NCBI GenBank assembly: GCA_030059675.1
Contig: JANVYQ010000005.1
Location: 1-64,000 of the forward strand
Direction: 5' to 3'
Length of the DNA: 64,000 nt
From: Candidatus Pelearchaeum maunauluense
GTDB lineage: Archaea > Thermoproteota > Nitrososphaeria_A > Caldarchaeales > Caldarchaeaceae
Shown: positions 53,532 to 58,749 of the stretch, piece after piece
How positions within the stretch are numbered: position 1 is the first letter of the stretch
How the letters are laid out: the number at the start of each line of letters is the position of its first letter
Notes under the pieces: generated by a model
Seen by the model: only the letters and a program-made list of their open reading frames with translations
Told to the model about the DNA's origin: nothing
The model's database searches: none
Translations under genes and position numbers: made by a program

Positions 53532-53774
53532 TTATTGGATTCGCAGGAGCCAGGCTTGGTGGAAGAATGGATAGTTGAGCAGTTTCTTGGTGAGCCACTC
53601 AGCTTTTTGTTGTGTGCCTATTAACGTGAGTATTGCTGAGAGCCTTGCGCCGCTGTCTGTGCTTGCTATGGTAGCGCCCTCAAGCGAGAGTTGCCCCTGC
53701 TTGACCAGTAGCATCATCTTCGCTATCGCGTCAGGATTGTTGCTAAGCTGTACGTATATGAGAAACCTTGTCAT
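53532..53774 (-). CDS. ilvN: ACT-domain acetolactate synthase small subunit
   Basis: 80-aa ACT-like protein (NNPDAIAK...), overlapping the ilvB 3' end. Confidence 0.7.
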   Translation of the reverse strand: MTRFLIYVQLSNNPDAIAKMMLLVKQGQLSLEGATIASTDSGARLSAILTLIGTQQKAEWLTKKLLNYPFFHQAWLLRIQ

Positions 53775-55473
53775 GCAGCTCCAACCCCGGTGGTAGTTTA
53801 ACCTCTGAGAGCCATTTGCCAGGTGGAACCATCGGAAAGACCATCTCCTCGCGGCCTATGGGGACGTCTATCGTTATGGCGGTGTTGCTGCGCACAGCTC
53901 TCTTGACGACGGTAGTCAGTTCCTCGTAGGAGTCAACCCTCACGGCTTCGACGCCGAAGGCTTCTGAGAGCTTTACTAGGTCTGTTTTGTCTGTGTAATC
54001 AACGTCCTTGAAGCGCTTCTGGTAGAACATATCCTGCCACTGCCTAACCATCCCCAGGGTTCTGTTGTCAAAGATTATCGTTATGATTGGTAGGTTGTAG
54101 TCGGCAATACATGCTAGTGTTTGGCATGTCATTAGGAAACTTCCGTCTCCATCTAGATTTACGACAGTTCTGTCTGGCGCTGCTGCTTTGGCTCCAAATG
54201 CCGCTGGTAGGCCGAAGCCCATGGTTCCGAGGCCGCAGCTACTAATGAAGCTGCTGGGAGTTCTAGACTTCCAGAAGAGTTGCGTCCACATCTGATGCTG
54301 CCCAACACCTGTGGTTACTATCGTGTCTGGTGGGAGTATGTTGTTGAGTAGTGAGATTACTTTCCACGAAGTCATTCGTGAGTTTCCTTCTTGGCTCATC
54401 ATGAATTCATCATAGGCCTCGCCTACCTCTTTAAACCGCCTTATGAGCGGGCTCTCTGGCCTTTTAGCCATAATATGCTTGATATAGTCTATCAGTTCGC
54501 GTAGTACTAGCTTCGCGTCTCCGTTGAGTGAGATTGTTGGTTTTACGTTCTTTCCTATTTCGCTGGAGTCTATGTCTATGTGGATTATCTTGCGGCCTCG
54601 CTCAAAGTCCTGTGCTGGTCCTATTGCTCTGTCTGAGAGTCTGGTTCCTACGCAGATTACTAGGTCTGACTCCATTATGGCTAGGTCTGCCTCTAAGCGG
54701 CCGTGCATTCCGACTACTCCTAAGACGAGTGGATGCGTCTCTGGGACTGATGATTTCCCAGGCGTTGTTGTTACTATTGGAGCGCCTATGAACTCGGCTA
54801 GCTCCAGAACCTCTTGTGTGGCGCCGCTGAAGAGGACTCCCCCGCCCGATAATATTACGGGTTTCTCCGCCTGGCTTATCGCCTTGGCTGCCTCCATTAT
54901 GCTATGCACGTCAGGCTCGCGTGGCCGTTGGTTGAAGAGCGGCTCAGGCATCACGTCCACATCGTCTTCCTCAATCTCTTCCTGCATAACGTCGCGGGGT
55001 ATGTCTAGCAGCGTAGGCCCAGGCCTGCCTGTCATGGCGACAGTGTAAGCGTTAACGAACTCCTGAACAAGGCGTCGCGAGTCTTTGACTGTCACGGCGT
55101 ATTTTATGTGGGGCAGGGTTAAGCCCACTATATCCGCCTCTTGGAAGGCGTCGGTTCCCATAAACGCCCTGACAACCTGCCCTGTTATGGCTAGAACTGG
55201 TATGCTGTCCATAGAGGCATCCACAAGCCCTGTTATGAGGTTCGTCGCCCCTGGGCCTGATGTCCCACTACATATTCCTGGCCTGTTCTTTATCCGTGCA
55301 TATCCCTCAGCCGCGTGAGCTGCTTGCTGCTCGTGGCGCATTAGGTAGCTGTTTATGTCAGCATCATAGAGAGCGTCGTAGAAGGGCATGTTAGCCCCTC
55401 CTGGTATGCCGAAGATTGTATCCACGCCCTTTCGTCGCATCTGCTTGATCAGTAGATCAACGCTCCTAGCCAT
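53743..55473 (-). CDS. ilvB: Acetolactate synthase large subunit
   Basis: FGIPGGA, RHEQ.A.HAAEGYAR, TSGPGATN, GTDAFQE, GVGQHQMW, GLGTMGFGLP, GDGSF.M, GMVRQWQ. Confidence 0.96.
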   Translation of the reverse strand: MARSVDLLIKQMRRKGVDTIFGIPGGANMPFYDALYDADINSYLMRHEQQAAHAAEGYARIKNRPGICSGTSGPGATNLITGLVDASMDSIPVLAITGQVVRAFMGTDAFQEADIVGLTLPHIKYAVTVKDSRRLVQEFVNAYTVAMTGRPGPTLLDIPRDVMQEEIEEDDVDVMPEPLFNQRPREPDVHSIMEAAKAISQAEKPVILSGGGVLFSGATQEVLELAEFIGAPIVTTTPGKSSVPETHPLVLGVVGMHGRLEADLAIMESDLVICVGTRLSDRAIGPAQDFERGRKIIHIDIDSSEIGKNVKPTISLNGDAKLVLRELIDYIKHIMAKRPESPLIRRFKEVGEAYDEFMMSQEGNSRMTSWKVISLLNNILPPDTIVTTGVGQHQMWTQLFWKSRTPSSFISSCGLGTMGFGLPAAFGAKAAAPDRTVVNLDGDGSFLMTCQTLACIADYNLPIITIIFDNRTLGMVRQWQDMFYQKRFKDVDYTDKTDLVKLSEAFGVEAVRVDSYEELTTVVKRAVRSNTAITIDVPIGREEMVFPMVPPGKWLSEVKLPPGLELHDKVSHIRTA

Positions 55474-57019
55474 CCCTATGACCACTCTCCACCCTCATGT
55501 AGTTACTCTGGGAAAGCAACAACTGGTGAACCGCGCTCGCGACAGCGCTAGTAATAGCGGCTGCTGGGTCTTTATCCAAGCCGCGTCCAACGGTTTCCGT
55601 ATCCTTAATCCTTAGAATTACCTCAGCCTCCGCTGGGTGTCTCTCATCAAACATGCCTGAGAGAACTTTGTAATCAACCAACTGTACGTCGGCTATGCTT
55701 TCTACTGCTTTTAGCGCCGCCCTTAGGCTTGCCGTCACTGGGTTTGAGCCTGCGCCGCGGCCTGCGACTATCTCATGAGCTACTATAAGCTCGCAGGCTG
55801 CGTCGTATTCTCCATCCACCTTGCTTATGCTCAGCCTCCTAATGCTGGAGCGTTCTAGTGTCTGTTTTCCATAGACCTGCGTGGCTATTGAGAGCACGTC
55901 CTCCTCAGAGACCCTGCCTCCAGAGTCGCCTATCTCCTTGATTCGCGCGAGTATCTTGCGTAGCTTCTCCCGCTCTACCGTGAAGCCATACTCCTTGAGC
56001 AGGGCTTCTACGCCATGAGCTCCCGAATGCTTTCCAAATACTATCCTACGCCGCCTGCCGAAGGATTCTGGCATTACGGGCTCGTAGGTATGCGGGCTTC
56101 CGAGTATCCCATGAACGTGTATCCCGCTCTCGTGGGAGAAGGCATTATCCCCTACTATCGCCTTGTTCTTGGGGACTATGATGCCTGTGAGCTTCTCGAC
56201 GAGGCGGGATGTCTTGTATAGGTTTTCCAACCTGATATTCGTCTTCACGCCATAGAGGAAGTTGAGCGCAGAGACTATCTCCTCTAGGCTAGCGTTGCCA
56301 GCGCGCTCACCTATGCCGTTGATTGTGGCATGTATTATCTCGGCGCCAGCCTCCACGCCCGCGAGCGAGTTAGCTACAGCCAGGCCGAAATCATCATGAC
56401 AGTGGACGCTTACTGGGACCTTCACGTTCTCCTTAGTGAGCCTAACTAGGTAGCGCATAGCGTAGGGGAGCGCTGTTCCAACCGTGTCAGGAATGTCTAT
56501 ACTATCGGCACCTGCTTTTTCAACCTCCCTAAAGACACGCATCAGGAAAGAAGGCTCTGTCCGCGTGGCGTCTTCAGCGGAGAAATGGACAGTAACCCCA
56601 TGCTCCTTGGCGTACTCCACCATGCTCCGCGCCTTCTCCAGCGCCTCTTCACGGGTAAGCCGTAGCTTATGTTTCAAATGAATGTCTGAGGTCGCTATGA
56701 AGACATGTATCCAATCCACGTCAGCGTTTAGCGCTGCGTCTATGTCCATCTTCTCCGCACGCGCAAGAGCGCATATCTTGGCCTTCAGCTTCATGTTGGC
56801 GATGGTCTTGACAGCCTCCGCCTCGCCCTTAGAGACCAACGGAAAACCAGCCTCAATAATATCAACACCCAACTCATCAAGAGCCTCAGCAACCCTAATC
56901 TTGTCTTCAGGCTTCAACGCAGCGCCAGGCGTCTGCTCACCATCACGCAGCGTAGTGTCGAAGATATACACCCTCTCAGGAAGAAGATACTCTCTCTGGA
57001 GAAGATTCTTCCAGGCCAT
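55466..57019 (-). CDS. leuA: 2-isopropylmalate synthase (LeuA/CimA family) with C-terminal regulatory domain
   Basis: DTTLRDGEQTPG, FIATSDIH, HCHDDFGLA, GERAGNA, FSHESGIH; SD GAGGTGA before ATG 57019 (in-frame ATG also at 57112). Confidence 0.9.
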   Translation of the reverse strand: MAWKNLLQREYLLPERVYIFDTTLRDGEQTPGAALKPEDKIRVAEALDELGVDIIEAGFPLVSKGEAEAVKTIANMKLKAKICALARAEKMDIDAALNADVDWIHVFIATSDIHLKHKLRLTREEALEKARSMVEYAKEHGVTVHFSAEDATRTEPSFLMRVFREVEKAGADSIDIPDTVGTALPYAMRYLVRLTKENVKVPVSVHCHDDFGLAVANSLAGVEAGAEIIHATINGIGERAGNASLEEIVSALNFLYGVKTNIRLENLYKTSRLVEKLTGIIVPKNKAIVGDNAFSHESGIHVHGILGSPHTYEPVMPESFGRRRRIVFGKHSGAHGVEALLKEYGFTVEREKLRKILARIKEIGDSGGRVSEEDVLSIATQVYGKQTLERSSIRRLSISKVDGEYDAACELIVAHEIVAGRGAGSNPVTASLRAALKAVESIADVQLVDYKVLSGMFDERHPAEAEVILRIKDTETVGRGLDKDPAAAITSAVASAVHQLLLSQSNYMRVESGHRDG

Positions 57020-57112
57020 AAAATCACCTCTAGAGAATAATGAGTTTGAGGAGGAGACGGCCCTGAAGAAGGCTACTAGCATTTTCCAAATCGCGGCGAG
57101 CCGTTGGGCCAT

Positions 57113-57142
57113 TTACCGAGCGCGGTGAAGCAATAATCCCAC
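57113..57142 (-). CDS. Putative leucine leader peptide uORF (M)GLLLHRAR
   Basis: GTG GGA TTA TTG CTT CAC CGC GCT CGG TAA, in the about 130-nt leader of leuA downstream of a TATA box. Confidence 0.5.
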   Translation of the reverse strand: MGLLLHRAR

Positions 57143-57174
57143 CCTCAGACTTGTAATCCCTAACGCTGTACAGA

Positions 57175-57186
57175 GCTATATAAGCA
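57175..57186 (-). promoter_or_regulatory. TATA box of the leuA-ilvB-ilvN leader transcript
   Basis: CTTATATAG on the minus strand, just after the pccB stop codon. Confidence 0.55.
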
Positions 57187-57198
57187 TTGACGAGTTCT

Positions 57199-58749
57199 TC
57201 ATAGAGGGATGTTGCCGTGCTTCTTTGCTGGTCTGAATTCTTCTTTGTCGCGTAGCATGTCTAGGGCTTTTATGAGCTTGATGCGCGTCTCAGATGGTTC
57301 TATGACCTCATCTACCAAGCCCCGCTCGGCAGCCACATAGGGGTTGGCGAACTTTCTGCGATACTCCGCGGCCAGCTCACGCCGCTTGGCCTCTGGGTCT
57401 TGCGCAGAAGCTACCTCTTTCCTGAAGATTATGTTGATAGCTCCTTCGGGGCCCATAACCGCTATCTCGGCGGTTGGCCAGGCTAGGTTTATGTCTGCTC
57501 GCGAGTATTTGGAGCCCATGGCGCAGTAGGCGCCTCCATAGGCTTTACGTATGTTGACCGTTATCTTCGGGACTGTTGCTTCGCAGTATGCGTAGAGGAG
57601 CTTGCTTCCGTGCCTGATTATCCCGCCGTGCTCCTGCTCTATTCCTGGCATGTATCCTGGGACATCTACAAATGTGATTATTGGTATGTTGAAGCAGTCG
57701 CAGAATCTTATGAAGCGCGCGGCCTTATCGCTGGAGTTTATGTCCAGCACACCCGCCATGTGGAGCGGCTGGTTGGCCACAACTCCAACAGTATTCCCAT
57801 CAAGCCTACCAAAGCCCACAATAATGTTTTGCGCCCAGCCCGCGTGAACCTCCATAAAATCACCATCATCCAAGACCTCTAGGATTATCTGCTTCATGTC
57901 ATATGGCTTATACGGGTCTTCTGGAACTATGCTTTCTATTCCATCAAGCCTCCTGTCTGGCCTATCCTGCGGCTCCACGCGCGGAGGTAGCTCGCTGTTG
58001 TTGGACGGCAGGTAGGAGAGGAGGCGTCTAATCATCATTAGGCACTCCTCATCATCGGCCGCGGTGAAGTGCGCTACGCCGCTAATTTCAGCATGAACAT
58101 GAGCGCCTCCCAGCTCCTCAAACGACACCTCCTGCCCCAACGCTGCTTTCACCACATCAGGGCCTGTAACGAACATCGTGGCGGTTTTCTCCACCATGAA
58201 GATGAAGTCCGTCATGGCTGGGCTGTATACCGCACCGCCAGCGCATGGGCCCATTATGGCTGAAATCTGTGGAATTACGCCTGAGGCTAGTGTGTTTCTG
58301 AAGAATATCTCGCTATACGCGGCGAGGCTTGCTATCCCCTCCTGTATCCTCGCTCCTCCAGAGTCGTTTAGCCCTATGACGGGAGCGCCTGTCTTTAGGG
58401 CTAGGTCCATTATCTTACAGACCTTCTTCCCGAAGACCTCGCCTAGCGAGCCGCCCATCACCGTGAAGTCATGCGAGAAGACGAATACCGTTCTCCCATC
58501 TATCTTACCATATCCCGTAACTACTCCATCGCCGAGGTAGCGTCTCTCGGCCATGCCGAACTCAGTAGCCCTATGGACTGCGAACTTGTCAATCTCAACG
58601 AAGCTACCAGGGTCTAGGAGTATGTCCAGCCTTTCGCGGGCTGTGAGCTTCCCCTTAGCGTGCTGCTCCTCAATCTTCTTCACTCCTCCTCCAAGCTCCG
58701 CTTCGCGATTCATCTTGCGGAGACGTTCCAGCAGGTCTTCATGGAGCAT
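57199..58749 (-). CDS. Acyl-CoA carboxylase carboxyltransferase (PccB/MmdA-like)
   Basis: QHAKGKLTARER, GDGVVTGYG, DSGGARIQEG, GPCAGGAVY, RKAYGGAY, KKHGNIPL. Confidence 0.95.
   Translation of the reverse strand: MLHEDLLERLRKMNREAELGGGVKKIEEQHAKGKLTARERLDILLDPGSFVEIDKFAVHRATEFGMAERRYLGDGVVTGYGKIDGRTVFVFSHDFTVMGGSLGEVFGKKVCKIMDLALKTGAPVIGLNDSGGARIQEGIASLAAYSEIFFRNTLASGVIPQISAIMGPCAGGAVYSPAMTDFIFMVEKTATMFVTGPDVVKAALGQEVSFEELGGAHVHAEISGVAHFTAADDEECLMMIRRLLSYLPSNNSELPPRVEPQDRPDRRLDGIESIVPEDPYKPYDMKQIILEVLDDGDFMEVHAGWAQNIIVGFGRLDGNTVGVVANQPLHMAGVLDINSSDKAARFIRFCDCFNIPIITFVDVPGYMPGIEQEHGGIIRHGSKLLYAYCEATVPKITVNIRKAYGGAYCAMGSKYSRADINLAWPTAEIAVMGPEGAINIIFRKEVASAQDPEAKRRELAAEYRRKFANPYVAAERGLVDEVIEPSETRIKLIKALDMLRDKEEFRPAKKHGNIPL

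Follow-up and report, generated by a model that had tools for sequence, protein, structure and literature searches.

The leuA-ilvB locus

The 64,000-nucleotide (nt) stretch of contig JANVYQ010000005.1 from Candidatus Pelearchaeum maunauluense that we analyzed (the window) carries on its minus strand the genes for 2-isopropylmalate synthase (leuA) and the large subunit of acetolactate synthase (ilvB), preceded by a predicted leader. This leader is conserved across the archaeal order Caldarchaeales, and it contains an open reading frame (ORF) that carries a run of leucine and isoleucine codons at its end and stops on the Shine-Dalgarno (SD) sequence of leuA. The features of the locus are the following.

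58761-57199, minus strand: carboxyltransferase gene, TIGR01117-like (score under the cut-off)
57177..57184, minus strand: TATA-like box CTTATATA, read from the sequence directly 3' of the carboxyltransferase stop; putative promoter element
57150..57158, minus strand: predicted transcription start region, about 22-27 nt 3' of the TATA box, placed by the spacing rule alone
57138..57146, minus strand: SD1, the SD-like purine block GAGGGTGGG of the leader frames, read from the sequence and from related leaders
57129..57135, minus strand: core TATTGCT, with two overlapping candidate starts, ATT 57134-57132 (long frame, followed by GCT) and TTG 57133-57131 (short frame, followed by CTT)
57113..57142, minus strand: short ORF, GTG GGA TTA TTG CTT CAC CGC GCT CGG TAA
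57030..57134, minus strand: long ORF IASPRSVNGPTARRDLENASSLLQGRLLLKLIIL, 34 codons, frame -1 relative to the short ORF, stop codon TAG 57032-57030
57033..57071, minus strand: branched-chain codon run, CTT CTT CAG GGC CGT CTC CTC CTC AAA CTC ATT ATT CTC
57024..57030, minus strand: SD2, the leuA SD sequence GAGGTGA, its first G being the final base of the long-ORF stop codon
55466..57019, minus strand: leuA, 517 amino acids (NCBIfam NF002085, 587.8 bits, cut-off 517)
53743..55485, minus strand: ilvB (TIGR00118, 635.5 bits, cut-off 538.35)

The 3' end of leuA and ilvB share a 20-nt overlap, and a gap of 179 nt separates the carboxyltransferase stop codon (57201-57199) from the leuA ATG at 57019. 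We fixed the leuA start at this position because the best leuA matches in relatives (found in 40 of 41 genomes) align from about residue 1 there. A preliminary description of this DNA had recognized the leuA SD sequence, which is followed by 4 nt and the ATG, but had placed the ATG at 57018. The TATA-like box that it reported is present at 57184-57177, as is a pyrimidine tract, CTCCTCCTC at 57056-57048, which forms part of the branched-chain run. Also present is a second ATG that it had noted at 57112, directly after the stop of the short ORF and in frame with leuA. This codon (57112-57110) opens a 31-codon in-frame extension of leuA (a 548-amino-acid ORF) that homologues do not use; we rejected it as a leuA start or reinitiation codon, since relatives align from 57019 and the closest relative has ACG at this place. 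In archaeal promoters the distance from the TATA box to the transcription start follows a spacing rule, which we used to predict the start at 57150..57158.

Conservation of the leader in Caldarchaeales

We compared 59 leuA upstream regions of the order, comprising 30 loci and 29 stretches, the latter selected among 58 genomes (of 76) that had a leuA match. A homologous core lies about 45 nt 3' of a TATA-like box in 54 of these regions, which span three families; the other five (genera g6 and g15) have a coding region immediately upstream of leuA. The 54 core-bearing leaders include 47 with the heptamer YATTGCT (11 genera; the first base is C in five and otherwise T) and seven with a variant that belongs to genus g7. 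The heptamer is located 73-155 nt before leuA and is preceded by an SD-like GGTG or GAGG block. In the g7 leaders (L019-L022, L025, L028 and L047), the homologous block reads AAGTGAGCC in seven of seven cases, and the diverged core GGTGAGCAAAGTGAGCCAACTCGA aligns without gaps to GGTGAGAATATTGCTCCAAATTCA of genus g10. This core homologue lies inside a hairpin, about 100-130 nt upstream of leuA.

A regular-expression scan detected a TATA-like hexamer that begins 41-51 nt before the core in 50 of the 54 leaders, so the core would lie about 20 nt inside the transcript. In 68 loci from outside Caldarchaeales, the 200 nt upstream of leuA did not contain the core. The genome of the window's organism has a single site with at most one mismatch to a wider version of the motif, namely the leader itself; as this genome search gave no second near-copy, the core was rejected as a regulon motif. 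Judged from the aligned regions, the conservation of the leader exceeds chance.

The long frame and its run of branched-chain codons

The long frame, which had been missed in the preliminary description together with its Leu/Ile/Val run and its stop on the leuA SD, is free of stop codons between the core and a point 20 nt before leuA in all 54 leaders; over this distance the short frame is open in none of them and the third frame in eight. Dinucleotide shuffles of 24 representative leaders keep this frame open with probabilities of 0.08-0.72 (geometric mean 0.29), and even with ten independent lineages the probability that it is open by chance is about 4e-6. Long ORFs range from 24 to 47 codons. 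In 36 of the 41 leaders from outside genus g3 (Caldarchaeum), which contributes the remaining 13, their stop codon is part of the leuA SD and precedes the ATG by 12-14 nt.

Between the window and its closest relative, the long ORF differs by an inserted Ile codon (3 nt), by one Leu to Ile and one Lys to Arg replacement, and by four third-position changes. Among 17 close pairs of long ORFs, all six alignment gaps are multiples of three; the definition of the ORF constrains the total length difference within such a pair, but not the single gaps.

In the window, the C-terminal end of the long ORF reads SLLQGRLLLKLIIL, directly before the stop. Leu and Ile account for nine of the 13 codons of the run and for seven of the last ten, whereas Leu, Ile and Val together provide 23.8% of all codons in a background set of 28 long ORFs from the window. 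The terminal residues LLQGRLLLKLIIL thus form a run of cognate codons of the kind that marks the leader ORFs of classical attenuators. Outside g3, 29 of 41 leaders have at least five Leu, Ile or Val codons among the last ten of the long frame, and the mean number is 5.5 in this frame versus 2.0 and 1.7 in the other two. Examples of peptide ends, each followed by the stop, are LIIVVLLLLVVL and IIVILLLVVL in g11, ALVLLIIIIL in g13, MLLLLL in g14, DLLLLLL in g7 and LRILLLW in g5.

Besides CTY, the runs use ATT, ATC, GTA, GTT and TTG. Because of this mixture of Leu, Ile and Val codons, the pattern lies at the level of amino acids (codons) and is more than a pyrimidine tract. The choice among synonymous codons is nevertheless skewed, with CTY making up 141 of 167 Leu codons in the runs versus 391 of 978 in leuA, and ATY 43 of 45 Ile codons versus 414 of 886. 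This skew points either to an additional role of the run as a pyrimidine tract or to the sensing of particular isoacceptors. Some long frames of g3 (L006-L017 and L039) are rich in Val, for example SVAVVFVVFPVGGFHGVA.

The short frame

The preliminary description had centered on the short ORF, from GTG 57142 to TAA 57115-57113, encoding (M)GLLLHRAR. This ORF is present, as is an in-frame CTG at 57148 that had been proposed as an alternative start. According to that model, the short GTG- or TTG-started ORF with its codons TTA TTG CTT is the sensor, and stalling in it remodels helices that hide the leuA SD. Several properties of the leaders agree with it. All 47 core leaders share the pattern NTA-TTG-CTY, in which the codons flanking TTG vary; its first codon is TTA, CTA, ATA or GTA, and hence only Leu, Ile or Val, its last is CTT or CTC, and the CTT/CTC and TTA/CTA changes are synonymous. 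The frame also ends early, 5-10 codons from the core TTG or GTG in all 54 leaders (six codons from the conserved start candidate TTG 57133 in the window), whereas the third frame stops within ten codons in only about 20 of 47.

However, the core TTG shows no synonymous variation in any of the 47 core leaders, and in the seven g7 leaders it is replaced by GTG, followed by AGC. For these two reasons it looks like the start codon of the short frame rather than a sensed Leu codon; the T-to-G change of g7 retains a canonical start. From this universal TTG, an elongator tRNA would read one Leu codon only. The upstream GTG of the model sits inside the SD-like block and shares the short frame in only 27 of 47 core leaders (one further leader has TTG there); it belongs to the long frame in 16 leaders and to the third frame in three, two g10 rows of this tally having been scored by eye. 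A GTG-initiated frame with three Leu codons is therefore not a general feature of the family, and g7 lacks a Leu run at this place. In the g7 leaders the short frame from GTG encodes MSQLE before its stop, and the -1 frame is open to a Leu run, with a stop at -14 in six of seven.

A candidate sensor of branched-chain amino acids

Taking these data together, we consider it somewhat likelier right than wrong that the leader is a ribosome-read sensor of Leu, Ile and Val, which acts on leuA-ilvB expression through the position of the ribosome on the run beside the SD. Conservation, the open frame, the codon run, the position of the stop and the codon bias are observed directly in the leaders, and the identification of leuA and ilvB downstream supports the reading, since their pathway matches the run. 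Unrelated leuA leaders with Leu/Ile runs in Thermoplasmata-type metagenome-assembled genomes (23 of 79 loci, described below) also count in its favor.

We infer that the 179-nt gap is transcribed from the TATA-like box as the leader of a leuA-ilvB operon and that its frames are translated. The strong SD-like block would place ribosomes on the invariant AUUG, where two overlapping frames are available. The short ORF would start at UUG, continue with a Leu codon CUY and terminate after 5-10 codons. The long ORF of 24-47 codons would encode a branched-chain amino-acid leader peptide ending in the run, almost all of it CUY and AUY. When charged Leu, Ile or Val tRNAs are scarce, ribosomes would stall in the run, 15-50 nt upstream of the leuA SD. 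In a presumed structural step, stalling may alter access to the leuA ribosome-binding site (RBS) by holding the pyrimidine-rich run away from the purine-rich SDs; alternatively, it may free the SD from occlusion by ribosomes that would otherwise read to the end of the ORF and terminate there, or something else may happen. The presumed outcome is that leuA-ilvB expression rises.

A number of observations count against this reading. The sign of the regulation is not obvious, because stalling at the very end of the run would put the ribosome over the SD. Sequestration of the leuA SD, which the preliminary description had proposed, found no support in two comparisons with shuffled leaders: the opening energy of the leuA RBS (-13..+3) has a median z of -0.33, with two of 27 leaders above 1.64 and ten of 27 above the shuffle mean, and the duplex energy between the leader and SD2/AUG is unremarkable (z < -1.64 in five of 47, median -0.12), although both controls keep the pyrimidine-rich base composition and apply 37 C parameters, which makes them weak tests. 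No terminator-like sites were found in 56800-57400. In Caldarchaeum (g3) the run is lost (0 of 13 leaders), and the long frame crosses the leuA SD and ATG to stop at +11 or +19.

Selection on the peptide is likewise not evident. Substitutions in the long frame of the 17 close pairs fall on codon positions 1, 2 and 3 in the numbers 89, 97 and 107 (p = 0.43), and because there is no third-position excess, the peptide sequence itself is not under selection. Genus-wide alignments of the long frame revealed no conserved peptide beyond the first two residues and the run, and codon-position variability within genera is saturated and uninformative. This absence of peptide conservation is as expected for a leader peptide, yet adds no support. 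Entry into the long frame poses a further difficulty. The long ORF of the window has no ATG, GTG or TTG at its 5' end or core, 16 of 54 leaders have none in this frame before the run, and in g7 the homologue of AUUG reads AGUG, by which the short-frame canonical start is kept and AUU is destroyed. Lastly, the counts of leaders overstate their independence, as the sample contains related genomes.

Entry into the long frame

At an SD-compatible spacing, the long frame offers ATT alone, and the canonical TTG opens the short frame instead. The first canonical start codon of the window's long frame is TTG 57089-57087, which would give (M)ENASSLLQGRLLLKLIIL. The spacing of the SD does not tell the two core candidates apart: GGTG lies on average 5.5 nt before the invariant ATT and 6.5 nt before TTG (36 scorable leaders), and 6.0 nt before the leuA start (44 leaders).

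An AUU start and a shift from UUG are both candidate ways into the long frame. The AGT of g7 argues against AUU as the universal start. An AUU start would not be far-fetched, because near-cognate codons account for about 30% of the putative alternative initiation sites in ribosome profiling of Haloferax volcanii (PMC7261190). A shift out of the short frame would fit all 54 leaders. A conserved X XXY YYZ heptamer, as for -1 tandem slippage, was not seen in the short ORFs on inspection by eye, no formal scan having been made.

We also considered a more specific scheme, which we regard as improbable, in which the invariant AUUG is a slippery start that makes a leucine-dependent choice of frame. 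The initiator tRNA would pair with two of three bases of either UUG or AUU. With charged Leu-tRNA available, the CUY after UUG would be read, and the ribosome would commit to the short frame and leave after 5-10 codons. With an empty A site, it would slip back by one base, read GCU and enter the long frame toward the run on the leuA RBS. For g7, the scheme would require a switch at CAA-CUC instead. If true, it would jointly explain why the A before UUG and the CUY are invariant, why the short frame always stops early and the -1 frame is always open, and why a canonical start is missing.

When the core is laid on the leuA start region with ATT on ATG, a median of 10 of 21 positions are identical, and the leuA start region ranks in the top 2% for 16 of the 54 leaders. 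Any two start sites led by an SD might share as much, and we rejected the similarity as special, with the exception of leaders L040 and L043, whose cores match the leuA start region of their own genome at 16 and 15 of 21 positions, respectively. The long frame begins with ATT GCT TGG in 13 of 47 leaders, similar to ATG GCN TGG of leuA. These resemblances hint that the core may have arisen by duplication of the leuA start site.

RNA structure of the leader

Folding was performed with 37 C parameters, although the RNA is that of a thermophile. The minimum free energy (MFE) fold of 57156-57005 is unremarkable (z = -0.68), and 43 of 200 shuffled sequences fold at least as well. The long helix CTGAGGG.../...CTTCAG of the preliminary description is absent from this fold, and one of its arms is weakened in the closest relative (CCTTCTTCAG to CATTCTTCAG). 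The proposed anti-SD sequence TTCACC pairs locally with the SD-like GGTG of the short ORF itself and not with the leuA SD. The fold of the window does contain a 4-base-pair CCUC:GAGG pairing; comparison with shuffles is a weak test of it, since they keep the pyrimidine-rich composition.

In 13 of 47 leaders, SD1 pairs with a downstream partner better than in shuffled sequences (z < -1.64; median z = -0.87). The partner is usually located just 5' of the run or within it, as in the following pairings.

g5: GCGAAGGG with CCCTTCGC
g4: CACGAGGG with CCCTCGTG
g11: GTGGGGG with CCCCCAC
g14: GCGTGGTGGG with CCCACCATGC or CCCGCCACGC, both differences keeping the pairing
closest relative: AAGTCTGAGG with CCTCAGACTT, with two mismatches in the window

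Consensus folding with alifold gave helices between the Leu run and leuA codons 3-5 in g5 and g10, and it also paired the run with leuA in g7. No T run in the leader is longer than the TTTT that separates the leuA SD from the ATG. A scan for sigma-70 promoters found one promoter-like site, on the wrong strand, and an Rfam scan of 56000-58000 with E values up to 10 gave no match in the leader.

Alternative explanations

The model in which the short ORF is the sensor keeps the conserved codons around TTG, the early stop and the SD1 pairing on its side. It does not account for the open -1 frame with its Leu/Ile/Val run, and its helix is the one missing from the MFE fold; we consider it rather unlikely. 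What stands of the leucine-sensing translational switch of the preliminary description is a conserved, promoter-proximal leuA-ilvB leader with upstream frames rich in cognate codons, as well as the pyrimidine tract as a component of the functional region, but not the GTG-initiated frame, the helix or the hiding of the SD.

A second alternative, which we regard as unlikely, is that the long ORF is a constitutive first cistron. It would load ribosomes and hand them to leuA by termination and reinitiation with no sensing, and its hydrophobic tail would be incidental or part of a small membrane peptide. The stop embedded in the leuA SD in most leaders would suit such a role, as would the g3 frame, which overlaps the leuA start in 13 of 13 leaders like that of coupled genes, and the lack of support for RBS sequestration. 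Yet the run consists of exactly the amino acids that the pathway produces and is strongest beside leuA-ilvB, the peptide sequence is unconserved, the codon choice is strongly biased, and an independent Leu/Ile-rich leader precedes leuA in Thermoplasmata-type metagenome-assembled genomes.

Quite improbable, finally, is a regulator-binding element in the RNA or DNA, or else a small structured RNA switch, with the reading frames as by-products: a 7-nt core invariant at every position across an order where LeuA identity drops to about 50%, the pyrimidine bias of the run, which suggests a role at the RNA level, and the judgment of the authors of the actinobacterial LEU element that a protein-binding site is likely for that element (PMC1262725) speak for it, but one frame open in 54 of 54 leaders, indels in multiples of three and runs with GTA, GTT and ATT are unexpected for a non-coding element, the genome has no second copy, Rfam has no match in the leader, and the single-sequence fold is unremarkable.

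Neighboring features

An 80-amino-acid ORF (53774-53532, minus strand) overlaps the end of ilvB at the place where ilvN would be expected, and had been labeled as such. This label is not established: the ORF has no Pfam or NCBIfam match, and the sole similarity is a weak one to residues 1-65 (the ACT domain) of Escherichia coli IlvH (E = 0.23). It may be a minimal small subunit consisting of the ACT domain only. Within leuA (56602-56873, minus strand), three Rfam matches resembling C/D-box snoRNAs remain below threshold (20.5, 19.9 and 10.9 bits versus gathering scores of 35-38) and most likely arose by chance.

Comparison with known systems

Ribosome-read leader peptides are the textbook bacterial way to gauge amino-acid supply. 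In the enterobacterial leuL and ilvL attenuators (Rfam Leu_leader), a short upstream ORF rich in codons for the amino acids of the operon serves as a gauge of charged tRNA. The Caldarchaeales leader resembles them in having an upstream ORF enriched in codons for the products of the operon. In contrast to them, it has a putative promoter of the archaeal TATA type and no Rfam match, terminator/antiterminator pair or U-run, and the stop of its ORF falls on the RBS of the first structural gene, an arrangement that suggests translational control rather than control by termination.

As far as the retrieved texts go, our full-text literature search found no published archaeal case of a ribosome-read leader peptide or of attenuation by one. 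In mycobacteria, leaderless short ORFs with polycysteine runs form a first cistron of cognate codons and are said to attenuate the downstream operon genes according to amino-acid supply (bioRxiv 10.1101/834739). While those ORFs begin with AUG or GUG at the 5' end of the transcript, as described there, the start region of the Caldarchaeales leader is SD-led and would lie about 20 nt into the transcript, and its long frame lacks a canonical start.

A different conserved leader ORF, started by ATG, precedes a leuA-like gene in 23 of 79 loci of Thermoplasmata-type metagenome-assembled genomes (L089-L147), for example MPHKSNGLLILPLGLLILA followed by the stop. It is located about 115-180 nt upstream of the aligned leuA region and is followed by about 35 nt of conserved sequence with a T-run and then by an ATG. 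This ORF appears to encode a branched-chain leader peptide of independent origin. Taken with the leuA-ilvB leader, whose Leu/Ile/Val run is maintained across an order of archaea, these Thermoplasmata leaders suggest that archaea evolved such sensors several times. A leader that ends on the SD sequence of the first enzyme gene, with no terminator, could show how sensing works with the archaeal transcription and translation machinery.

The closest described system, with a similar architecture, is the LEU element of Actinobacteria (Seliverstov et al. 2005, PMC1262725), which we compared through its published description and with no claim of homology. As described there, it too is located upstream of leuA and has a candidate leader ORF with a Leu run near the leuA SD box; this run is pyrimidine-rich and complementary to SD-type purine tracts, and there is no obvious terminator. 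The Caldarchaeales leader differs in being archaeal with a putative TATA promoter and an apparently unrelated sequence, in a run that mixes Leu, Ile and Val, and in an ORF that stops on the SD. The base stem between the Leu run and the leuA SD, the defining feature of the LEU element in that description, has a 4-base-pair counterpart in the window's fold but gained no support from the weak shuffle controls. The Caldarchaeales long ORF, unlike the leader ORF described for Actinobacteria, lacks a canonical start codon and shares part of its sequence with a second ORF, the short one. At the level of sequence, the leader family is thus characterized by an invariant AUUG at which the two frames overlap and by a long frame without a canonical start, and such a frame provides a tangible case in which near-cognate initiation or the choice of frame in archaea can be tested.

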